A DNA stretch of 64,000 nt. It comes from Rhodoferax sp. (GTDB taxonomy: Bacteria > Pseudomonadota > Gammaproteobacteria > Burkholderiales > Burkholderiaceae_C). The notes under the pieces are model-generated. The model was not told where the DNA came from. It did not search any database and saw only the letters and a list, made by a program, of their open reading frames with translations. Shown one piece after another: positions 12,491 through 38,125 of this stretch. A program made the translations under genes and the position numbers. The number at the start of each line of letters is the position of its first letter. Position 1 is the first letter of the stretch. Where the stretch lies: NCBI RefSeq assembly GCF_034519335.1, contig NZ_JAXHOL010000003.1, positions 27,597 to 91,596 on the forward strand, read 5' to 3'.

Positions 12491-13303
12491 ATGAAAACAA
12501 ATAAACGCGTTGCGCTCGTTACTGGCGCTTCCTCAGGCATCGGTGAAGCCACCGCCAACAAACTCGTCGCCGCGGGCTACAAGGTCTATGGCACAAGCCG
12601 GCGCGGCGCGCAGGCGGGCCACGGTGCCATGACCATGCTGGCGATGGATGTGACAGACGACGCCTCGGTCCAGGCCGCTGTCGATACGCTGCTGCAACAC
12701 GAAGGACGCATCGATCTGCTGGTGAACAATGCGGGCTTTGGTTTTGGCCCGGCCGCCGCGGAAGAGAGTTCGATCGCACAGGTGCGGGCGATGTTCGAGA
12801 CCAATGTGTTCGGCGTGGTGCGGGTCAGCAATGCAGTCTTGCCCACCATGCGCAAGCAGGGCAGCGGCCGCATCCTGAACGTGGGCTCCGGGCTGGGCAT
12901 CATCCCGGCGCCCTTCAACGCCCATTACTCGGCCACCAAACACGCCATCGAGGGCTACTCCGAATCGCTCGATCACGAAGTGCGCGGCTTCGGCATACGC
13001 GTCGCGGTGATTCAACCGGGCGTGACCCGCACCGCATTCGACGCCAGCGTGACACCCGCCGATCAGCCCCTGGCCGCCTACGACGCCAGTCGCAAAAAGT
13101 ACCTCGTCGCATTCGAGGTTGCAATGCGTGCCGCAGATAGTGCCGACAGCGTGGCGGACACCATCGTGCTGGCCGCTGACGACCAGACGCCGCTGCTGCG
13201 CTACCCCTCCGGCAAGGTCGCGCGCCAGGGCGCGTTCGCCCGCCGCTTTCTGCCGCGCGGCTTCTTTGACAAGGTGCTGCACAAGCAATTCGGATTAGGC
13301 TAA
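12491..13303 (+). CDS. Short-chain dehydrogenase/reductase
   Basis: ALVTGASSGIG, LLVNNAG, YSATK, SLDHEVRGFGIRV. Confidence 0.88.
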   Translation: MKTNKRVALVTGASSGIGEATANKLVAAGYKVYGTSRRGAQAGHGAMTMLAMDVTDDASVQAAVDTLLQHEGRIDLLVNNAGFGFGPAAAEESSIAQVRAMFETNVFGVVRVSNAVLPTMRKQGSGRILNVGSGLGIIPAPFNAHYSATKHAIEGYSESLDHEVRGFGIRVAVIQPGVTRTAFDASVTPADQPLAAYDASRKKYLVAFEVAMRAADSADSVADTIVLAADDQTPLLRYPSGKVARQGAFARRFLPRGFFDKVLHKQFGLG

Positions 13304-13700
13304 GGCAAAGGGAGGCTGGGGGCGTGGGGCGGGGGGGTGGGTAGGGGGGGGAGGAGGGGGGGGGTGGGGGGGGGGGTGGGGGGAGAGTAGGGAGGGTAGA
13401 GAGGGGGGGGGGAAAAAAAGGGGAGAGAGCAGCGGGGAGTGAGGGGGTAAAGGGGGGGGAGAGTAGAAGGGGGGGGAAAGAGGGGGGGGGGAGGAGGGGA
13501 GGAGGGGAGAAAGGGGGGGGGGGGGGGGATGGGGAGAAATGGGGGGGGGGAGGGAAACAAAAAGAGAGGAGGGGCAGCGGGGGGGGGGGAAGAAAGAGGA
13601 GGGGAGGGAGAGGGAGGGGGGGGGGTGGAAGGGGGGGAGCTGGGGGGGGGAAGGCCGGGATGGGGGAGGTGGGGGAAGAAAAAAATGAAGTTAAGGGGAG
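13304..13700 (+). other. G/A-rich low-complexity tract, probable sequencing artefact
   Basis: About 400 nt almost devoid of C/T, irregular G runs with no period; starts right after a stop codon; adjacent genes are frameshifted. Confidence 0.7.
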
Positions 13701-13765
13701 CAGAGGGTACCGCACCAAGCGCCTGCGAGCCTCAGGCCTCCAGCGTGGGTATGCAAAGCCAAAAT

Positions 13766-13830
13766 GCTATGGAATAGGTAGCTGCTCGCGCATACTTCCA
13801 TAAGGGCTAGAGGCCTATTTGACTACTATT
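13766..13830 (+). repeat. REP-like intergenic repeat, copy 2
   Basis: GCTATGGAATAGGTAGCTGCTCGCGCATACTTCCATAAGGGCTAGAGGCCTATTTGAC. Confidence 0.7.
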
Positions 13831-14260
13831 TAGCGCCTATTTTGCATTTGCAGCGGGCCTGCCCAGCGCCCCTGTGGACGCGGCTTGGAGCAAGCGCTGG
13901 AACGATGGGCAGGCCATGTGGCTGGCGGCCGGGCACTTGGCGGCGTGGCGCAAACTGGTCGCTCGTGGCCTGTAGCCGGGTCACCATGGCGTCGATCTGG
14001 TCCGCCTTGGCGGCGAGCATGGCCCGGTCAATGCTCGGCGCTGTCGTCGGTGAAAACATCTGCGCAATCTCATCCAGCGTAAAGCCCCGCCGCCTGCCCC
14101 AGCGACACCAGGGCCAGCTGCTCCAGCACGTTCGGTGCAAGCGTAAACCGCCGCCGCAAACCCTGCCGGCCTATCGACGCGCGATCAGCCCGCGCTCTTC
14201 GTAGTAGCGCAGGGTCGATGCGGGCAAGCCCGAGCGCTTGGAAACTTCTGAAATATCCAT
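13826..14260 (-). pseudogene. MerR-family regulator, frameshifted (real or sequencing error)
   Basis: MDISEVSKRSGLPASTLRYYEERGLI HTH in one frame; FTLDEIAQMF...MLAAKADQIDAMVTRLQA dimerisation helix in another. Confidence 0.75.
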
Positions 14261-14916: not shown

Positions 14917-15165
14917 ATGAAAAAAATCCCCGCACGTTTCGCCCCCGCTTTGTTCGGCCTCATCCTCTCCGGCCTCATGTCCTGGGTGGTGTCCGGCATC
15001 TCCACCTTCCGGGCGTCCGGCCCCGGTGCACACTTTCTGGACCTGTGGATAGGCGCCTGGCTCATGGCGTGGCTGGTTGCGTTCCCCGTGGTGCTGGTCA
15101 TCGCCCCCTTCACCCGGCGCATCGTCCAACGCCTGGTGGCCAGTGCGCCACAAGCCCAGCGCTAA
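14917..15165 (+). CDS. DUF2798-like small membrane protein
   Basis: LSGLMSWVVSGI...WIGAWLMAWLVAFPVVLVIAP pattern. Confidence 0.7.
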   Translation: MKKIPARFAPALFGLILSGLMSWVVSGISTFRASGPGAHFLDLWIGAWLMAWLVAFPVVLVIAPFTRRIVQRLVASAPQAQR

Positions 15166-15211
15166 CGCGAAGCGCAAGACCCGCGCCTCATGGCTTGGTG
15201 CGGGTCAAATT

Positions 15212-15249
15212 GCTACTTTATTGATAGCTGTTTGCGCAATATCTAGTGC
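15212..15249 (+). repeat. REP-like repeat, copy 3 (truncated)
   Basis: GCTACTTTATTGATAGCTGTTTGCGCAATATCTAG, nearly identical to 5' half of copy 5. Confidence 0.65.
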
Positions 15250-15411
15250 CTCCTTGAGTCACCGCCGCCGAGAAGACGGAGATGCGGGCCGGGCGGCAAC
15301 AGGAGTTCGTGGGGGGTTAGGTTAAGGCGTGCATTCGCGCTAGTTTTATTAGTTAAGCGACATCATCCAATCGTCAAAATTTATTATCCAGAGATCTCGC
15401 ACAACGATTGC

Positions 15412-16899
15412 TCAAGCCTGCTTACCGCCATGCAAAGGAATTCCATGCTTAAAAATCGGCCTTTGCACAACAGCGCGAAGTAGGTTGGCACCTAGCATAT
15501 AGGCGTATAGGCTAGCTGGACGAAAAGCGAAATCCACACCTTTATATTTAACATCCTCATCCGCGACCGTCTTAGATGTAATCAAAATTGGTTGTCCAAT
15601 TTTTGGATTTCGCCCAACAAATTCCACACAATTATCTAGCTCTGCGCGTGCTTTATATGGACGATCACTCCACTTAACTTCGACAGCCCAAGTCGGTTTC
15701 TGCTCACTCCCGCTGAGATGAACAATATCTATTTCACCCGAGTTCCATCTCGCATAGTAAAGCTCGGTTAATTTACTATGTTGCCACTGACTATAGATCG
15801 CAGTCTCTGTCAATGCACCCATTGCTTCCGAGTCTGCTTCAATCTGACCAAATAGCGCAGCGCGCATAGAGGGATTTGTTAGGTATACCTTAAAGCACAT
15901 CGCCCGCTTAAACTTTTTAGCGGTTTGATCGATTCGTTCAACGCGTCGAATCAAAAATGCAGCCTCAAGGTATTCAAGATACCGACGGATAGTATTTTTT
16001 GCAACACCCGATGATTGAGAAAGAGCCTCAAGGCTGACCTCATTTCCGGAGTTGTAGGCAAGCGTGGTGAATAATCGATTAAGCTCTTGTATATCACTAA
16101 TTCCGTACAGACTAGGAAGGTCGCGCAGCAAGACCTTGTCGATAATATCGCTCTTAATGTACTGACCAGGATCTCGTCGAATCGTCTCAGAAAAGACCGC
16201 CTCAGGATAGCCGCCAAAATTGAGGTAATTTACAAATTCCTCATTCAGCTGATCGATATTTTTGGCAGCATAATCAAAACTTCCCATCTCATCACTAGAA
16301 GTCGGAGTAGTACTAACAAGCTCCTCCTCTCTCCCAATAAACATTAAATACTCAGCAAATGTTAAAGGCGGCAATACATAGTCACTAAATCTTCCTGCAC
16401 CTGATTCGTTGCTTTTTAATCGCAAAGCAGCTGCAGCTGATCCAGTAACAGCAAAGCGATAGTCTGGATATGAATCAACTAAAGATTTAAGATGAATCTC
16501 CCAGTCCCGTAAATACTGAATTTCGTCAAAAAAGACAAAGAGATTCGAATCACGTTTATGAGAAAATAATTCTTGAAAGTACGCCAAAATTCGCTCTAAC
16601 GAGAGTCCCGTATAAATTGGCGTTTCCAAAGAGATATATAAGATATTGGAAGCATCGACCCCTGTATCTAGCAGAGCTCGAATACTGTGGTAAACCATCA
16701 CAGTTTTTCCAACTCGCCTCGGCCCCATCAGTACTACAGCTCGTCGTACAGTAGCGTCTGCGACAGCCCGATGAAATAGTTCAAAATACTTTCGACGCGG
16801 TGTACCCTCATAGGCTACTTTGCCACTACGACCATCTGACCACCAAGGGTTGTCAAACTGGAGCCGGGAAACGATGTCTTTCTTTGCTATCTCAAGCAT
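15412..16899 (-). CDS. AAA+ ATPase (AAA_14) with C-terminal DUF4143 / PD-(D/E)XK-like domain; AT-rich
   Basis: Walker A GPRRVGKT, Walker B FVFFDEIQ, VTGS, GGYPE, EIDIV...AVEVK; visibly lower GC than neighbours. Confidence 0.85.
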   Translation of the reverse strand: MLEIAKKDIVSRLQFDNPWWSDGRSGKVAYEGTPRRKYFELFHRAVADATVRRAVVLMGPRRVGKTVMVYHSIRALLDTGVDASNILYISLETPIYTGLSLERILAYFQELFSHKRDSNLFVFFDEIQYLRDWEIHLKSLVDSYPDYRFAVTGSAAAALRLKSNESGAGRFSDYVLPPLTFAEYLMFIGREEELVSTTPTSSDEMGSFDYAAKNIDQLNEEFVNYLNFGGYPEAVFSETIRRDPGQYIKSDIIDKVLLRDLPSLYGISDIQELNRLFTTLAYNSGNEVSLEALSQSSGVAKNTIRRYLEYLEAAFLIRRVERIDQTAKKFKRAMCFKVYLTNPSMRAALFGQIEADSEAMGALTETAIYSQWQHSKLTELYYARWNSGEIDIVHLSGSEQKPTWAVEVKWSDRPYKARAELDNCVEFVGRNPKIGQPILITSKTVADEDVKYKGVDFAFRPASLYAYMLGANLLRAVVQRPIFKHGIPLHGGKQA

Positions 16900-16910
16900 A
16901 CAAATCCAAT

Positions 16911-16973
16911 CAAGATTAACTGACTGATCTTAGTTTACATCAATTTTCAAACAAGATTAATGCCATGATCTTA
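16911..16973. promoter_or_regulatory. Two tandem 22-bp palindromic boxes upstream of the AAA+ gene
   Basis: CAAGATTAACTGACTGATCTTA (16911-16932) and CAAGATTAATGCCATGATCTTA (16952-16973). Confidence 0.6.
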
Positions 16974-17144
16974 ATGCGGCTTAAGATCTATCGTCGATCG
17001 TATCGAGCTGATGACGCCCAGCTTGCCTAATTTGGTCCCCGGCCGCCCTTGAAGCAACGCCACAATATCTCTTCAGCATTGATGCCTCAACAAACTGCCA
17101 CTGGCATGCAAATCTGAAAAACTCAATGCACCGAGTAACTGGCT

Positions 17145-22783: not shown

Positions 22784-23239
22784 TTACTTGGGCATCACGA
22801 CGCTGTCGATCACGTGGATCACGCCGTTGTCGGCCACGATGTCGGTCTTGACCACCTTGGCGTTGTCCACCATCACACCACCGGTGGTGGAGACGGTCAG
22901 CTCAGAACCCTGCACGGTCTTGACCTTACCGGCACGCACGTCAGCGGCCATCACTTTGCCGGGGACCACGTGGTAGGTCAGGATGGCGGTCAGCTTGGCT
23001 TTGTCTTTGAGCAAGGCGTCGAGGTCAGCCTTGGGGATCTTGGCAAAGGCTTCATCAGTCGGCGCAAACACGGTGAATGGGCCCTTGCCCTTGAGGGTGT
23101 CCACCAGGCCAGCAGCGCCCAGGGCTGCGGCCAATGTCTTGAAGCTGCCAGCACCCACAGCGGTATCCACAATGTCTTTGGCCTGTGCAGAGAAGGCTAC
23201 GCCCAGGGACAGAACAGATGCAATCAGAAACTTTTTCAT
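22784..23239 (-). CDS. Fasciclin (FAS1) domain secreted protein
   Basis: Signal peptide; [38 protein letters not shown]. Confidence 0.92.
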
Positions 23240-23329
23240 CGATATCTCCATGATGGTTAGATCAATCAACCTCGCCAAAAATGTGGCGCAAGCGGAATAT
23301 ACAAACCGAAAAGTATCCATATGAACTAT

Positions 23330-25480
23330 ACGGTATTTATTTGTTTTGGGGCCTCACCATTTGCGACACTACACCCAAAGATGGGGGTAAAAGCTTTGCG
23401 ACACTAGACCCCGGCTGCTGCTTTGGATTTGTTGCGCCTGTGGATATACGGTGTGCTGTTGGCCTACTGCCTTGGCAAAAAGGGCTGCGTGAGGCTTGGT
23501 GAGGGTGCATTGGGCTGGAGGATGGGCTTGTACGGGGAGTTTGGGGGGGGTGGCTTTGCGCTGGGGCGATTTGCTTCGCCCTGGATCTGCAGCACCTTTA
23601 CCACCACGGCGCCCTGGATTGCACTGGCAAGTGCCGGCGTGGAGCGTTACAGCCTGCGCGTGTTGCTCACCTACCGATTTGTCAAAGGTTCTTTCTCTTT
23701 GGTCGGCTTGGGTGCCGGTGCCTCGCTACTCTCGTGGCGGAAGTTTTTGCTAATTGACGGCGAGGCGCTGTGTGGATGGAAGATCGTGGTTGGTGGAGCT
23801 TTGGAATGCTGGGTGCAGCGCTTGACCCCAAGTGGGCCGCCTATGTTGGCCTAACGTTGCTGGCTATTTCTATTGCCTCGCTGGCGATATTTGGGAAAGC
23901 GTTGAAAAAGCGCTGTTGCCGAAAAATACGGGACGCCGCCAAGCGGGGGGAGCGGTTGCGCGGCAATACTTAGTGACCCACACGTCGTAAATGATTTGCA
24001 GCATTGGACGTTTTGGCTGCGCACGGTGCGTGGACGCGCGCCTGAACCAACTCGCCAAACGTGGCCACCAAAATCTTGCCTTGGTCAGCGAATATTGAAA
24101 CGCGTTGGTGCGGCTTTCGCAAGCTGTTACTTCAACCTGACTTCTTGCCAAAAGTTGCCAGATCTTTGCCATCTGCACTGAAGTCACTGGCGTAGTACTT
24201 CATTAGCTCACCCACGCTTCCTGAGCTTTGGCCGCGCCATGCAAGACTTTCCGTTGAGGTTCCGCTGCCCGTTTGCCGCCAATTGAGCTGCAATAGGAGG
24301 GGTAGTCGAATTTCCAAGTGCGAATAATGCGATCCAAGTAGGATTGGCCCGCAGCTCGTGCTGGGTTTGGTGTGGTGGGGTTCCTGTCGTGCCGCGTTGC
24401 GGTCGAATTGGGGTGCTCGGGCGTGCCGTCATGGTCGGGCTTGGGGTCAGGGTGGTAATGATACCCCCCGGCGTGCGCTTCCCATTTGCCGTTCCGGAGA
24501 TGTAGTGTGCCCGTCGGGTTTTGCTCCCGTGTTCTCAAAAAGATAAGGAGCTGGCGGTGTCGGCGATGGATGTTTGTTTCTTCTGGAAAGGCCAAAAATG
24601 GGTGGTCAGTAATGGAGGACGCTTGTGCCGCGTGCGCATGCGCCGCGGTTAAGTTGTTTTGCGGCCCGCTCCAGTTGTGGGGACTCGCCGCCGTCGAATG
24701 GAGCGAAAGGCGGAAAAGGTTGTGGCTGAAAATTTGGGTCGCGGCGTTTGTTTGCGCGCTTGCGGGTGTCGTGCCCTAGGGTATTTCTGGCGTGTTGGCG
24801 TGTTGGTTGGTTATTGGGTTTGGAGTGATTGGAAATGCGGTGAATGGTGAGGCAGAATGTGCTTGAAAGAAGTAGGGTGGGTTCTTCGTTGTTTGCTTCT
24901 GTGTCCTTCGCTTGTTTTGGGTCTTTGATTTCTCGTCGCGGCCTCCTTCTTGCTCTTGCCCTCTTCCGCCCAGCGCTGTGTTGCTAGGACCAATTGGCGG
25001 GTGGCCATTCACAAAAAAGGTTGGTGTCTTCGTCACTTCCAACGCTGTCAAGTCCTGAACATCTTGGGACAACACGCTTAATTCGCCCGCTTGCTGCAGG
25101 GCTTTGGATATTTACCCCGCCTGGCTTGGTCGCCATTCAGTTGGGCTTTGCGTGGTCCGCCCCTCGGTTGGGCCGCCAGGTCTTTCCAGCCGGGGTTTTG
25201 TCCTGTTTTGGCTGCTTCGGCGCTTTCCCTTGGTCAGCCTTGATGGGGCGCATACCGTCAGGGATTCGTTGGGGTGTTTCGCATAAGTTTGACAGTGGAT
25301 AAAAGGCTGTGTCTCGCACGCAGGATCAAAAAGGATGGGGGGCGCATTGACGGGCCCCCGGGTTGGGACGACCTTGTTGGCGCTTGTGCCTTTCCATTTG
25401 AGAATTTTGGACACGCTGTTGGTACACGTACATACCAAGCGCAAAGGCTGGATAGAAAGGGATGTTGTTTTTGGATTTCA
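23330..25480. other. Garbled low-quality sequence; contains remnants of at least two genes on - and one membrane-protein gene on +
   Basis: No clean ORF; recognisable motifs hop frames every few dozen codons. Confidence 0.7.
23970..24890 (-). pseudogene. Remnant of L,D-transpeptidase (Cds6-like C-terminal domain)
   Basis: Fragments LAWR...LMKYYASDFSADGKDLA and DQGKILVATFGELVQ match my recollection of the C-terminal domain of betaproteobacterial L,D-transpeptidases; boundaries approximate. Confidence 0.45.
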
Positions 25481-25481
25481 T
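24900..25481 (-). pseudogene. DsbA-family thioredoxin, frame-broken (likely sequence error)
   Basis: MKSKN..FALGMYVYQQRVQ; FDPACET; QDVQDLTALEVTKTPTFFVNG; ATG overlaps dsbB stop (ATGA). Confidence 0.7.
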
Positions 25482-25894
25482 TTGGGGACTTTTTTGAGAT
25501 AAGTAATGATCAAAACGGTGATGAGAAAAAAAGCGGCCAAGGACAGCCACGGGATCTGCAAACCGTTGAGGATTTCCAGCTTTTGATTCGCGCACGAGAC
25601 ACCTGTTCCACAGGGGGTCCATGTTTTCGGAATCCAAGAAGCGACAAGCAGCGTGTGGTAGCCAGAAATCAATGTCCCTGACACCGCCAAAGGCAAGGCA
25701 TAGACGGCACCTCGACGGTCATGGCTATAACTGGCTATACCCAGAATGAGCGCCAAAGGAAACATCGCTATGCGCTGGTACCAGCACAAGGTGCAGGGCG
25801 TCATCAACATCACTTCGCCAATGAATAGGGCGCCTGCTGTAGACAACAAGGCGAGCAACCAGGCAGTCAGAAGTAGTAGCCAGGTGGACTTCAT
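25478..25894 (-). CDS. dsbB: Disulfide bond formation protein B (DsbB/BdbC)
   Basis: PCTLCWYQRIAMFPL, second Cys pair PC...SC; ATG overlaps lspA stop. Confidence 0.88.
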   Translation of the reverse strand: MKSTWLLLLTAWLLALLSTAGALFIGEVMLMTPCTLCWYQRIAMFPLALILGIASYSHDRRGAVYALPLAVSGTLISGYHTLLVASWIPKTWTPCGTGVSCANQKLEILNGLQIPWLSLAAFFLITVLIITYLKKVPK

Positions 25895-26409
25895 AAGCCT
25901 CCCTTGCGGAGGCCGGCAGATTGGCGTTTTGAAATGGAAAAGGAGAGCCCAACCCAGACAAGCATGGCGCAAACCACGAACACATCCGCCAAATTGAACG
26001 CTGGCCAGTGAAGCGCCTTCCAGTGCAAATCAAGAAAATCTATGACCGCGCCGGTCTGGACCCGATCAATCAAGTTGCCACTGCCTCCGGCAACAACACC
26101 CGCGCCGATCCAGCGCTCCGCGGGATCGATTTTGCGAAGCAGGCACAGTACTGTTATAGGCAGTACCACCAGGACACTGATAGAAATAAAAAACCAACGT
26201 TGCCAACCACCCGCATCGGCAAGTATGGAAAACGCCGCTCCTGTATTCAGGACGTGTACGAAGTTAAACCAAGAAGTAACTTCAATCAAACCTCCCAATG
26301 GAATGATGGAAGCGAAAAAAACTTTGGTGATTTGATCCAGCGAGACCAAAGCCAACACCACAACGATCCAGACCCAACGCGGATATACGCGCCAAAACGC
26401 TTGCGCCAC
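25891..26409 (-). CDS. lspA: Lipoprotein signal peptidase II
   Basis: LDQITK, NTGAAFS, GNLIDR, VIDFLD, WPAFNLAD; GTG at 26409 is 6 nt after GGAGGAG. Confidence 0.92.
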   Translation of the reverse strand: MAQAFWRVYPRWVWIVVVLALVSLDQITKVFFASIIPLGGLIEVTSWFNFVHVLNTGAAFSILADAGGWQRWFFISISVLVVLPITVLCLLRKIDPAERWIGAGVVAGGSGNLIDRVQTGAVIDFLDLHWKALHWPAFNLADVFVVCAMLVWVGLSFSISKRQSAGLRKGGL

Positions 26410-26439
26410 AAACAACTCCTCCAACAGGCTCAGTCAAAA

Positions 26440-26546
26440 CCGGCAGATTTGCCGGAACAAGAATCCAGGAGAAGAATGGTTACGGTGGACAGACCGGCAA
26501 TGCACCGGTCAATCCCTTAACTGAAACGCCCCTGGTTAAACCAGGG
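26440..26546 (-). promoter_or_regulatory. Three hairpins between czcI stop and lspA RBS
   Basis: CCCTGGT-3nt-ACCAGGG (26530-26546, stop codon at the loop), GACCGG-7nt-CCGGTC (26492-26510), CCGGCA-4nt-TGCCGG (26440-26455). Confidence 0.55.
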
Positions 26547-26889
26547 AAACCCATTGCGGGCGTTCGGGTAAGTCTTGGTAGTGAGCCAGATACATAGCGG
26601 CATTGGCATGTATCCGCACAGGCCCTGTAGTCAGCCGTAGCGTTTTCGACGAACTTTGAAATGCTACGGAACAGTTCGCGTGGCAAACGCCGCATTCGTT
26701 TTCAACAGAGACGCCATCTACCCCAGCAGAGCCATCGTTGTCCGTGGTCACAGTCGCGTGCTTGTGTGCATGGTGACCTATGTGTTGGACTGAAGGCATG
26801 CTTTCATGCTGGCAATAGGTACTCACAGCAGCCCAGGTTAACTGCAATGGCAAGAGCACCAAGAGAAAGACGAGAAGCCAGCGTCGCAT
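26536..26889 (-). CDS. czcI: CzcI-like protein
   Basis: Signal peptide MRRWLLVFLLVLLPLQLTWA, YCQHE..HIGHHAHKH, CGVCH, C-terminal PERPQW; same layout as Cupriavidus CzcI. Confidence 0.8.
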   Translation of the reverse strand: MRRWLLVFLLVLLPLQLTWAAVSTYCQHESMPSVQHIGHHAHKHATVTTDNDGSAGVDGVSVENECGVCHANCSVAFQSSSKTLRLTTGPVRIHANAAMYLAHYQDLPERPQWVSLV

Positions 26890-26906
26890 GCTATGAAGTT
26901 TAGCAG

Positions 26907-27695
26907 CTACAACCTTGCACCCAGGTACTGGCCGGCCTTTCCGGGCTGGAGCATATGGCGCTTTGCGGGGCGCACGCGCCCAGTGCGGATGTTGTCCACA
27001 TTGCGGTTCATCCAATGGCGAATAAAGCGGGTGTAGAGCCACTGCTTGAGGCCCGACAGGTTGACTCCATGCAGCTGATAAAAAGCATCTGGCGTGTCAA
27101 AAACGCCAAAGTCTTGGTTGATTCCCTCTTTCTGGATGAAGGTGTCCTGCCCGGCCCAATCGACCCCAGGCGCCTGCAGGTTGGGAGTAGCCACGCCAAA
27201 GCCGCAGAAGCTACCTTGTACATCTGCAAATCCGGTCTGCAATGCGTTGAGGTAGGGCATATCGAGAATGAAGCCTTCCAGCCGCAACCAGCGGTCTTCC
27301 AACAGAACCTCCACCCAGCTGTGCAGGATGGACGGTGGTGCCAGCTGGTAGGCCAGCCCAGTGATGGCGCCGCGCTGCAACACCTTGTCGATAGTGAAGC
27401 CATGAAAGCGACAAGGAATGTCCAACGCCCGAAGCAAGGCCATGAGCAGCGTGCCCTTGGTGTTGCACTGGCCCAAGCCATCGGCCAGTACCTGTGAAGC
27501 GGGCAGATCGTCACTGTCGTTGTAACCAAAGACCAGTTCGTCACGCACAAAGTCATAGGCCGCGCCAATGCGTGCATAGGGCTCCAGCGCACGCCAGCCG
27601 CGTGCCTGGACCAGGCGCTGAATCTCGGGATGGTGGATGTCCAGAATCGGGCTGGCGCTGGTCCATTGGGGTGCGGTAGCGCTGAAATATGTCAT
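26907..27695 (-). CDS. Transglutaminase-like family protein
   Basis: GLGQCNTKGTLLMALLRAL (Cys), LHSWVEV (His), WLRLEGFILD. Confidence 0.85.
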   Translation of the reverse strand: MTYFSATAPQWTSASPILDIHHPEIQRLVQARGWRALEPYARIGAAYDFVRDELVFGYNDSDDLPASQVLADGLGQCNTKGTLLMALLRALDIPCRFHGFTIDKVLQRGAITGLAYQLAPPSILHSWVEVLLEDRWLRLEGFILDMPYLNALQTGFADVQGSFCGFGVATPNLQAPGVDWAGQDTFIQKEGINQDFGVFDTPDAFYQLHGVNLSGLKQWLYTRFIRHWMNRNVDNIRTGRVRPAKRHMLQPGKAGQYLGARL

Positions 27696-27728
27696 AGGTA
27701 TTGGTTATTGAAATATGGCAAAACCACT

Positions 27729-27759
27729 ATTAAAAAGCCTGTACCAACTACAGAGTCAA
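27729..27759 (-). promoter_or_regulatory. CadR/PbrR-type promoter-operator driving the transglutaminase gene
   Basis: On - strand TTGACT (27759-27754), 19 bp spacer with dyad CTGTA-N5-TACAG, TTTAAT (27734-27729). Confidence 0.85.
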
Positions 27760-27809
27760 GCCGTACAATTCGCTATCTGCGCTCATAGGGCGCACCCGGG
27801 AGAATGTGC

Positions 27810-28289
27810 ATGAAAATTGGTGAACTGGCCAAGGCCACTGGCACCCAGGTGGAGACGGTGCGCTACTACGAGCGCGAGGGCCTGCTGCCCACGCCCCTGC
27901 GCACCGAAGGCAACTACCGCATCTACGGCGCCAACCACATGGAGCGCCTGTCCTTCATCCGCCACTGCCGCTCGCTGGACATGACGCTGGACGAAATCCG
28001 CACCCTGCTGGGTTTCAAAGATGCACCAAAAGACAACTGTGAACAAGTCAACGCACTGCTGGACGAGCACATTGGCCACGTGGCCCAGCGCATCAAGGAT
28101 CTGCGGGCGCTGGAGCGGCAACTCAAAGCCCTGCGCGAGCAGTGCCTGGTAACGCAGGAAGCCGCGCACTGCGGCATCTTGAATGAGCTGTCAGTCGCAG
28201 CCCGCACCCAAGCGGTACCGAGGGCAGCACATGGCCATGTGCATGGCGCGCACACCCGCGGCGCGCAAGCCAAGGTCAAGAAGCAATAG
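27810..28289 (+). CDS. cadR: Cd(II)/Pb(II)-responsive MerR-family regulator
   Basis: MKIGELAKATGTQVETVRYYEREGLLP, RHCRSLDMTLDEIR, three Cys (NCEQ, QCL, HCGIL), His-rich tail HGHVHGAH. Confidence 0.88.
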   Translation: MKIGELAKATGTQVETVRYYEREGLLPTPLRTEGNYRIYGANHMERLSFIRHCRSLDMTLDEIRTLLGFKDAPKDNCEQVNALLDEHIGHVAQRIKDLRALERQLKALREQCLVTQEAAHCGILNELSVAARTQAVPRAAHGHVHGAHTRGAQAKVKKQ

Positions 28290-28707
28290 CGTTCAACACC
28301 TGCGAAGGAATGCGCCGTGGCTTGAGGGTGTCGGCCTGCACGCAACCGATGCGAATGCGACCCTGGGCCAGCAGCGTGTCGCCACGCCAGGCCTCTTGCA
28401 CCAGCACCATGCTGGCAGCGCCGAGCTCGGCGACCTGCACGCTCACCGTAATCAGATCGTCCAGCTTGGCCGGCGCTAGGTAGCGCAATTGCACATCGGC
28501 CACCACGAACATGGCGCCGGTTTCGTCGCGAAGGGCCTGTTGGCCTACGCCCGCAGCGCGTAGCCATTCGGTGCGGGCACGCTCAAAAAACTTCAGGTAG
28601 TTGGCATAAAACACCACGCCACCGGCATCAGTGTCTTCCCAGTAAATGCGAATGGGAAAGGGATTGGGGATTGCGGGCACGGTGGCCACGCTGTCGACTG
28701 CGCTCAC
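28276..28707 (-). CDS. ybgC: YbgC-type acyl-CoA thioesterase
   Basis: RIYWEDTDAGGVVFYANYLKFFERARTEWLR. Confidence 0.85.
   Translation of the reverse strand: MSAVDSVATVPAIPNPFPIRIYWEDTDAGGVVFYANYLKFFERARTEWLRAAGVGQQALRDETGAMFVVADVQLRYLAPAKLDDLITVSVQVAELGAASMVLVQEAWRGDTLLAQGRIRIGCVQADTLKPRRIPSQVLNAIAS

Positions 28708-36992: not shown

Positions 36993-38125
<1,133 letters not shown>

Follow-up and report, generated by a model that had tools for sequence, protein, structure and literature searches.

The window analyzed here is a stretch of 64,000 nucleotides (nt) from Rhodoferax sp. (contig NZ_JAXHOL010000003.1). Its minus strand carries an open reading frame (ORF) of the CzcI family, 117 amino acids (aa) long (26889-26536; NCBIfam NF045614), which is followed after a spacer of 126 nt by lspA, the gene for signal peptidase II. 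We lean toward the reading that this czcI is a cis-acting leader ORF whose last codons form, together with the spacer, a four-segment switch that reads the position of the ribosome. The parts of this reading differ in strength. The alternative RNA structures are very probably real; that they gate translation of the downstream genes is probable, as judged from folding models; and a metal-modulated pause as the trigger is a plausible but tentative proposal. The cis-regulatory RNA and the anatomy of the leader are strongly supported by the comparison of related sequences.

Four RNA segments at the czcI-lspA junction

The switch was deduced from four complementary segments, R1 to R4, all read on the minus strand. 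R1 (TCCCTGGT, 26547-26540) consists of the last czcI sense codons and forms the 5' arm of a perfect hairpin, (T)CCCTGGT-tTA-ACCAGGG(G), at 26547-26529, in which the stop codon TAA (26538-26536) occupies the loop and part of the 3' arm. This 3' arm is R2 (ACCAGGGG, 26536-26529), whose alternative partner is R3 (CTTCTCCTGG, 26474-26465), a segment that contains CTCCT (26471-26467). R4 is the lspA Shine-Dalgarno (SD) sequence GGAGGAG (26422-26416), situated 6 nt before the GTG start at 26409-26407. The 3' part of R3, CTCCTGG, pairs with R2 (CCAGGGG:CTCCTGG, -11.9 kcal/mol), and its 5' part, CTTCTCC, pairs with the lspA SD. R1 and R3 compete for R2, and R2 and R4 compete for R3, the helices being mutually exclusive. 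Hairpin 2 (GACCGGT-gcatt-GCCGGTC, 26510-26492) separates R2 from R3 as a structural spacer; hairpin 3 (CCGGCA-aatc-TGCCGG, then TTTT; 26455-26440) is enclosed by the R3:R4 helix and probably brings R3 and R4 together.

An initial annotation of this region had placed the stop codon in the loop of a perfect 7-bp hairpin, with two more hairpins after it, and this proved exact to the base, the helix measuring 7 to 8 bp. The CTCCT that it had set opposite the AGGAG of the lspA ribosome-binding site also lies where described, whereas the match is of 7 bp including one G.U pair and not of 5 bp. Folding of the 155 nt from the stop hairpin to lspA gave -59.3 kcal/mol (z = -2.86), and 1 of 200 shuffled sequences was as good. 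In both the minimum free energy (MFE) and the centroid structure, all three hairpins were predicted, together with the 7-bp CUUCUCC:GGAGGAG helix over the lspA SD.

Other identities for these elements were considered. The stop hairpin and hairpin 3 were labeled terminator-like by a pattern scan; hairpin 3 as a conserved intrinsic terminator was rejected, the T-run reading TTGTGA in relatives. No Rfam match at the gathering score was obtained for the window spacer and 16 related loci. Matches below that threshold within 26431-26563 (minus strand), to RF02423 (Bp1_781; 18.3 bits, E = 0.062) and RF02866 (ncS16; 20.8 bits, E = 0.46), both Burkholderia small RNA families, are probably due to chance. 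Three transcriptome runs yielded no RNA reads for the window, and the four small contig pieces obtained from one metatranscriptome all lie outside czcI and the spacer; the public runs that contain the window sequence are DNA metagenomes.

Conservation of the alternative helices

About 100 loci related to czcI were compared, a scan of metagenome contigs contributing four further close relatives. The order czcI-lspA-dsbB-dsbA of the window recurs in L001-L007 and L081-L084 (both groups at 74-76% identity) and in L091-L096 (52-56% protein identity). In all more distant relatives czcI is followed, after about 80-170 nt, by a czcC-like gene. The window czcI does not lie directly upstream of czcCBA; lspA follows instead.

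The stop codon was found in the loop of a 7- to 8-bp hairpin in nearly all of 66 distinct loci, the 5' arm (R1) being made by the last two to three codons and the 3' arm (R2) by the sequence just past the stop. The arms differ in sequence by lineage, as in CCTCGCC-TGAtc-GGCGAGG, GCTTGCC/GGCGAGC, CCCTGCC/GGCAGGG, ACCTCGCC/GGTGAGGT, and CCCTGGT/ACCAGGG of the window. An R3 was likewise present in the czcC-type loci, 32-49 nt before the czcC ATG; in an example such as CCTCGCCGATCTCC, the 5' part is the reverse complement of R2, and the 3' part is complementary to R4, here GGAG(a/c)ATCGG, which comprises the SD and spacer and immediately precedes the ATG.

The initial annotation had proposed covariation analysis of czcI 3' regions, and this was carried out on 58 distinct czcI-czcC spacers (alignment A2). 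The R1:R2 helix was paired in 97.3% of cells, with 3 of 7 pairs changed on both sides. The R2:R3 helix, 11 bp formed across about 150 columns, was paired in 96.7%, with 8 of 11 pairs changed on both sides; none of 500 shuffles reached this value, and slid registers were 34-49% paired. Because G.U pairs are frequent in R2:R3 and other mismatches are rare, the structure was assigned to the sense RNA. The R3:R4 helix, taken in one register, was 83.9% paired, with 0 of 9 pairs changed on both sides. A single R3:R4 consensus over the czcC-type loci was dropped, the registers being CCGATc/gATCGG, CCGAATTC/GAATTCG, or CTGATCTCC/GGAGATGAG depending on the subgroup. Since this difference in register accounts for the absence of counted double changes, a swap test was used instead. 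When partners were exchanged between loci, each of the three helices lost about 2-3 kcal/mol on average (permutation p ~2e-4 each, uncorrected for phylogeny). The best R2 partner overlapped the best SD partner in 59 of 65 loci.

The lspA-type loci gave a corresponding picture. Over eight such sequences the three local hairpins were 95.6% paired, with four pairs changed on both sides, a result reached by 3 of 500 shuffles. The closing pair of hairpin 2 is U.G, U-A, C-G, or G-C depending on the relative, and one pair of hairpin 3 occurs as A-U, G-C, or G.U. L002-L007 have TCCCCTGG as R3, which matches R2 perfectly. In L091 and L096, R1, R2, and R3 read CTCCCTGGC, GCCAGGGAG, and CTCCCTGG, changes that are compensatory relative to the window, and the loop contains an extra Ser codon.

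These data bear on whether the hairpins and the anti-SD match are chance complementarity without function. Pairing between a pyrimidine run and an SD sequence arises easily, and the single-locus z-scores are weak for the window type. However, compensatory changes were found in three helices across the family, and the window and czcC types differ fully in sequence yet keep the same pairing logic, so chance was judged close to negligible as an explanation.

A pyrimidine-rich, G-poor tract (82-87% pyrimidine, e.g., CTTCTTCCTCCC) was also observed 15-25 nt past the stop in the czcC-type spacers (L009-L080), and the window-type spacer has no such tract at that distance. No partner has been assigned to the tract, which could serve for the loading of Rho, as a standby site for ribosomes, or as a decoy anti-SD. 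Its pairing with R2 (GGCGAGG), which lies just upstream, was considered and dropped, amounting to about 4 bp only.

Predicted effect of ribosome position

Folding with and without a ribosome footprint, which had been put forward as a check on the initial annotation, gave results in keeping with a switch. For the window RNA from R1 onward, the OFF structure (R1:R2 with R3:R4) was the predicted default at -58.0 kcal/mol, and the ON structure (R2:R3) was at -52.9 kcal/mol. When the nucleotides up to the stop were forced to be single stranded, ON became the MFE structure. The predicted probability that the SD is unpaired was 0.26 for the free window RNA (mean of 64 loci, 0.15), 0.02 with Pro111 in the P site (mean, 0.16), 0.51 with Trp113 in the P site, where R1 is covered (mean, 0.25), and 0.03 with the ribosome at the stop codon, where both R1 and R2 are covered (mean, 0.10). 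Across the 64 loci, the state with R1 covered differed from the other states with Wilcoxon p values of ~1e-9 to 1e-10.

The leading edge of a ribosome lies about 12 nt beyond the first P-site base. On this geometry, only a P site between Trp (codon -5) and about codon -3 would cover R1 and leave R2 free. The four codons that follow the Trp fit the footprint, since Trp in the P site puts the leading edge at the end of R1.

The CzcI peptide and its ruler

The initial annotation had described a product of 117 aa with a signal peptide, a His cluster, CxxC, and LPERPQW, and all of these were found on the minus strand where it had placed them. The layout is MRRWLLVFLLVLLPLQLTWA|AVSTYCQHE..HIGHHAHKH..ECGVCH..LPERPQWVSLV*, that is, a signal peptide (aa 1-20), YCQHE, HIGHHAHKH, ECGVCH, an unconserved spacer of 40 aa, PERPQW, VSLV, and the stop. 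The export signal MRRWLLVFLLVLLPLQLTWA|A was read from the sequence without a dedicated signal-peptide predictor, and AlphaFold gave a confident helix at residues 2-30. The family assignment is based on NF045614 (efflu_CzcI_Cupr), which scored 102.9 bits against a curated cutoff of 100 (E = 1.7e-29) over model positions 1-123 of 124. The Pfam DUF2946 (PF11162) threshold was missed (14.6 versus 23.7 bits, E = 0.056), with the C terminus unaligned. Several homologs (e.g., P0017-P0019) carry precomputed PF11162 matches, and the kinship of the window CzcI to DUF2946 was therefore deduced to be remote.

Alignment of 42 protein-database homologs of CzcI (A1) showed the signal peptide, YCxHE, HxGHHxH, and DCxxCH to be invariant, along with R110, P111, and W113 at the C terminus. 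The candidate metal-binding CxxCH is CGVCH (aa 66-70; 26680-26694, minus strand), in which C66 and C69 are invariant and H70 is present in at least 90% of the 42 homologs. The candidate pause or arrest site is PERPQW (aa 108-113; 26551-26568, minus strand). Among 80 genome loci the C terminus conforms nearly without exception to (P)(E/D)RP(Q/N)W-x-x-L-A-stop. Among 103 unique proteins, 86 place the Pro of (P)ERPxW exactly 42 residues after the second Cys of CxxC (range, 41-44), and in 87 the Trp and the stop are separated by exactly four residues. The spacer of 40 residues between CxxC and the motif is unconserved in sequence; AlphaFold was confident for the signal-peptide helix only, the mature part having a pLDDT of about 44-63 (shallow alignment).

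Peptide and RNA constraints could be separated at the codon level. The third positions of the PERPxW codons vary in alignment A2, and this motif was thus deduced to be selected as peptide. The final residues, in turn, differ by subgroup (LA, LV, or LAS), and their codons stay complementary to the sequence past the stop; because of this, the last CzcI residues look dictated by the RNA. Two Rhizobacter loci, L061 and L077, have lost the usual stop after ...LA; their ORF extends by five codons (LAVRRDA) through R2, and the R1:R2 hairpin is retained. As read from the sequence, these two loci are a natural variant in which R2 would be translated.

Proposed mechanism and passive coupling

The following mechanism is proposed. 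In the free RNA, R1:R2 would make the stop-codon hairpin, and R3:R4 would sequester the lspA SD (OFF). A ribosome within the final four or five codons of czcI, its P site between about Trp113 and about codon -3, would cover R1 and leave R2 free, and R2 would then capture R3 and release the lspA SD (ON). At the stop codon the ribosome would cover R2 as well, and after its release R1:R2 would re-form, returning the RNA to OFF. The dwell time of the ribosome just past PERPQW would set the amount of LspA and of the coupled DsbB. The invariant PERPxW may slow the ribosome, and the exported N-terminal nascent chain, with its His cluster and with CxxCH 42 residues upstream, may bind periplasmic Zn, Cd, Co, or Pb and alter the dwell. 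Metal would then turn on translation on top of CadR-dependent transcription. By analogy with CutF, metal is expected to switch a detoxification or repair module on, although the opposite sign, as in CruR, is also conceivable.

The same RNA switch could operate by passive coupling, in which ribosomes finishing czcI briefly uncover R2 and lspA or czcC is made in fixed proportion to czcI. Neither arrest nor metal sensing would be involved, and PERPxW would serve the mature protein. All of the RNA evidence given above fits this equally well, a known arrest motif is absent, and CzcI is described as a functional periplasmic protein in published reports. What passive coupling leaves unexplained is the fixed distance from CxxC to RP across an unconserved, unfolded spacer, the exact number of codons after the Trp, and a mature part without a predicted fold. 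At typical elongation rates, we estimate that a moving ribosome crosses these few codons in a fraction of a second. Such a transit seems short for displacing an existing R3:R4 helix, and passive coupling was judged to be rather unlikely.

Comparison with known leader systems

In the leaders of ermC, cat, and cmlA, and in SecM-secA, a ribosome held on segment 1 leaves segment 2 free, and this in turn exposes the SD downstream. The arrangement that defines erm- and cat-type attenuators is predicted here as well: helices 1:2, 2:3, and 3:4 are exclusive, segment 1 lies in the leader ORF, and segment 4 includes the SD. The triggers of those systems are an antibiotic or the state of Sec, and their leaders are either short (erm and cat) or carry the SecM motif FxxxxWIxxxxGIRAGP, whereas here the leader is an exported protein of 117 aa with putative metal binding, and helix 1:2 has the stop codon itself in its loop.

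CutF and CruR are the two characterized cases of exported, Cys-motif upstream ORFs (uORFs) that control downstream genes by stalling together with mRNA structure. CutF (Rhodobacter capsulatus cutFOG; Ozturk et al. 2021, 2023, 2025 preprint) resembles CzcI as a small ORF exported through Sec, with a metal motif of Cys residues, a conserved motif at its C terminus, and a metal-defense gene directly downstream. In that system an mRNA structure shields the next SD, leader translation is needed to open it, and the CutF protein is undetectable; shielding of the SD is a prediction here. Stalling at PPP, induced by Cu during cotranslational export, melts the stem-loop over the cutO SD. CutF has CxxxC and an EF-P-dependent PPP, whereas CzcI has CxxCH, His clusters, and (P)ERPxW with a single Pro. 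The stalled ribosome on cutF melts the stem-loop itself, and here the signal would travel about 60-150 nt through the capture of R3 by R2. Instead of a multicopper oxidase, the targets here are lspA-dsbB or czcCBA, and the place of Cu is presumably taken by Zn, Cd, Co, or Pb.

CruR (Bp2923 of Bordetella pertussis, DUF2946; Roy et al. 2022) shares with CzcI an exported uORF, CXXC, and a fixed spacing (45 versus 40-42 residues; in CzcI, 40 residues intervene before the Arg, fewer than the 45 of CruR). Its motif, RAPP, ends 3 residues before the stop, compared to 4 for PERPxW, and its intergenic region is 162 nt, compared to 126 nt. ORFs of the CruR and CutF type come first in their operons, ahead of a long spacer; the window czcI has such a spacer and a conserved -10-like element of its own, but a transglutaminase-like gene lies 17 nt upstream of it. 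Copper relieves the arrest at RAPP and permits Rho-dependent termination, so that output is repressed (Roy et al. 2022). The window CzcI differs from CruR in falling short of the DUF2946 threshold and in an RNA that targets the SD and start codon. The initial annotation had assigned a layout like that of CruR and CutF. In the window the signal peptide, CXXC, and a conserved spacing were found, and RAPP, PPP, and a DUF2946 match above threshold were not. The window CzcI contains no consecutive Pro residues, its motif being PERPQW, and so is without the PPP motif of EF-P-dependent stalling; RAPP three residues before the stop is also absent, (P)ERPxW sitting four residues before the stop with one Pro after the Arg. 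The window ORF is accordingly classed as a CzcI family member, a remote relative of DUF2946, and, by analogy, a functional counterpart of CutF and of leader-peptide attenuators.

The CruR precedent suggests transcriptional attenuation as a further explanation. A ribosome paused near the czcI stop would block the loading of Rho on the spacer, and upon its release Rho would terminate transcription before lspA or czcC. The pyrimidine-rich tract of the czcC-type spacers and the monocistronic czcI mRNA described for Cupriavidus metallidurans are consistent with this. The conserved R3:R4 helix, however, targets the SD and start codon directly, the window-type spacer is largely structured and without the tract, and Rho-dependent polarity could equally result from a closed ribosome-binding site. 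Attenuation by Rho was considered quite improbable.

The czcI genes of Cupriavidus metallidurans

Both czcI copies of C. metallidurans CH34 have the R1-R4 set. The pMOL30 czcI, a member of the NF045614 family with a spacer of 75 nt, ends in ...PDRPQWQRLA* and reads GTCTCGCT-TGAtc-GGCGAGAC (R1, stop, and R2), with TCTCGCCGAATTCTCC as R3 and AATTCG-ATG as R4. The chromid paralog ends in ...PDRPQWSRLA* and reads GTCTCGCC-TAGcc-GGCGAGAC, with CGTCTCGCCGATTTTCTCC as R3. In constrained folding, the pMOL30 spacer is predicted to switch as in the window.

In published work, a monocistronic czcI mRNA is described beside czcICBA, and transcript abundance falls from czcI to czcC. The gene is strongly transcribed, and CzcI was undetected in the proteome. 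These data fit an attenuated junction. The pMOL30 czcI has a published transcription start site at -53, unlike the conserved element near the ATG of other loci (see below). Ozturk et al. (2023) placed CzcI and CzcI2 of C. metallidurans among the CutF-like proteins (cluster 20 of their SSN) and left their mode of action open. No mention of an RNA switch or of a cis role for CzcI was found in the CzcI literature examined.

Evidence weighing against the proposed switch

Several points weigh against the proposed switch. In the window the R3:R4 helix is short, 7 bp including one G.U pair, and other partners come close to it in energy. Six of the closest relatives (L002-L007) have a C.A mismatch in the middle of the pairing between the anti-SD and GGAGGAG. 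Single-locus duplex z-scores are modest, and the covariation statistics are uncorrected for shared ancestry. The change in SD accessibility is moderate in many czcC-type loci, as CTCC:GGAG can persist together with R2:R3; in several of them the effect on the SD is small, and the stretch ATCGG-ATG is mainly what opens. With Pro in the P site, a paused ribosome would stand short of R1 and leave the hairpin unopened. Stalling, metal dependence, and action in cis only are predictions from sequence here, and PERPxW, with its one Pro, is not among the known arrest motifs. Ozturk et al. (2023) state that the C. metallidurans CzcI is without a Pro-rich motif. Finally, the Nies laboratory describes CzcI and the chromid paralog as periplasmic quenchers of CzcCBA, and because of this quenching some action of CzcI in trans is implied.

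Action in trans alone would make CzcI a periplasmic metal-binding modulator, and the hairpins would act in mRNA processing, stability, or partial termination to keep czcI expression high relative to the downstream genes, with no switching that depends on the ribosome. The published quencher role with its contribution from the paralog, the monocistronic mRNA, the drop in abundance after czcI, and the terminator-like hairpin calls of the pattern scan are in line with this. Hairpins that stabilize or terminate, however, need no second, exclusive partner, and it is the long-range R2:R3 helix that covaries most strongly. The overlap of R3 with the anti-SD, the unconserved T-runs, and the failure to detect CzcI in the proteome also speak against it, and a role in trans alone was deemed improbable.

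Neighboring genes, promoters, and origin of the module

On the minus strand of the window, czcI is preceded by 17 nt by a transglutaminase-like gene (27695-26907). Downstream, lspA (26409-25891; Pfam Peptidase_A8, E = 3.3e-33; TIGR00077, 101.8 bits) is followed by dsbB (25894-25478; BdbC-type disulfide oxidoreductase; Pfam DsbB, E = 6.5e-14), the start of which overlaps the lspA stop by 4 nt. Beyond dsbB, dsbA is a decayed pseudogene (24986-25480, minus strand) with frameshifts, deletions, and a disrupted CxxC region; in relatives it is intact (about 217-241 aa). Nucleotide similarity to relatives ends at 25468, the region 23320-25478 is poor in ORFs, and downstream genes survive as short remnants only, e.g., at 24148-24349. 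The operon continues in relatives such as L003 and L091 with SCO1/SenC, to which L003 adds a YkuD L,D-transpeptidase.

A MerR-type regulator gene (CadR/PbrR-like; 27804-28289, plus strand; TIGR02047 CadR-PbrR, 181.5 bits against a cutoff of 151.45) lies divergently, and facing it is a MerR-type promoter (27759-27729, minus strand) that was read from the sequence as TTGACT, a 19-bp spacer, and TTTAAT. The dyad CTGTA-N5-TACAG lies inside this 19-bp spacer, upstream of the transglutaminase-like gene. A pattern scan for sigma-70 promoters over 25300-28400 found no -35/-10 promoter and also missed the MerR-type promoter. This promoter and an extended -10 element were identified by eye and by comparison. 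The latter, TGcTAAACT (26897-26905, minus strand), ends 7 nt before the czcI ATG with no SD between. Of 61 distinct sequences upstream of czcI in its relatives, 55 have TAnnnT ending 5-9 nt before the ATG; 37 of these carry the TGn extension, and 1 has an SD-like sequence. The element is part of a conserved block, (CTnTAG)CTGCTAnACT, that ends at this distance from the czcI ATG in the 55 of 61 loci (window and L002-L080). Since the -10-like element near the ATG is conserved and an SD-like sequence is rare, these sequences suggest a second promoter that gives a leaderless czcI mRNA, and that such a message is the usual source of CzcI.

Similarity to L003, L005, and L007 begins at 26910-26911 of the window, and L001 matches the upstream gene as well. 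The gene upstream of czcI varies: L003 has a cytochrome bd oxidase gene, L091 a P-type ATPase gene, and both the window and L001 the transglutaminase-like gene. Across 23000-28000 the G+C content is 53-58%, compared to about 62-69% in the immediate flanks. The czcI module looks horizontally acquired and mobile as a unit that begins 22 nt before czcI. Elsewhere in the window, further G+C dips were seen at 15001-17000 (0.42-0.50) and 37001-38000 (0.47), and a strong GC-skew spike of +0.38 at 13001-14000.

Implications for the CzcI family

The interpretation given in the initial annotation is thus borne out in part. Its idea that czcI acts as a cis leader is favored by the anatomy, the exclusive partners of R3, the compensatory changes, the ruler, and the folding; in general form it is not new (Ozturk et al. 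2023). New here are the (P)ERPxW motif with its ruler, the stop-codon hairpin, the R1/R2/R3 covariation with an erm/cat-like relay over 60-150 nt, and the lspA-dsbB-dsbA variant. A broader version, which we regard as possible though doubtful, is that the whole CzcI family, including the pMOL30 czcI, whose product has been treated for three decades as a periplasmic protein, consists of leaderless, cotranslationally exported nascent-chain metal sensors. Periplasmic metal would prolong the (P)ERPxW pause, so that R1 is covered, R2:R3 forms, and the ribosome-binding site of czcC (or of lspA-dsbB-dsbA) opens. Under this broader version, the "quencher" phenotype of czcI deletion would be at least partly a cis effect on the translation of CzcCBA, and phenotypes of czcI deletion call for caution, as they may stem from altered translation of the pump in cis.

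For pMOL30 and for reporters in E. coli the model is concrete and can be mutated at four segments, a 42-residue ruler, and four codons past the Trp. In the lspA-type loci, a metal-sensing leader would be tied to an envelope-repair module of LspA, DsbB, and DsbA, to which relatives add Sco1 and an L,D-transpeptidase. If the model is true, the relay would differ from those known in that a long-range third segment carries the signal, and metal-sensing exported nascent peptides would extend from two copper systems (CutF and CruR) to Zn, Cd, Co, and Pb resistance, including the textbook czc system.

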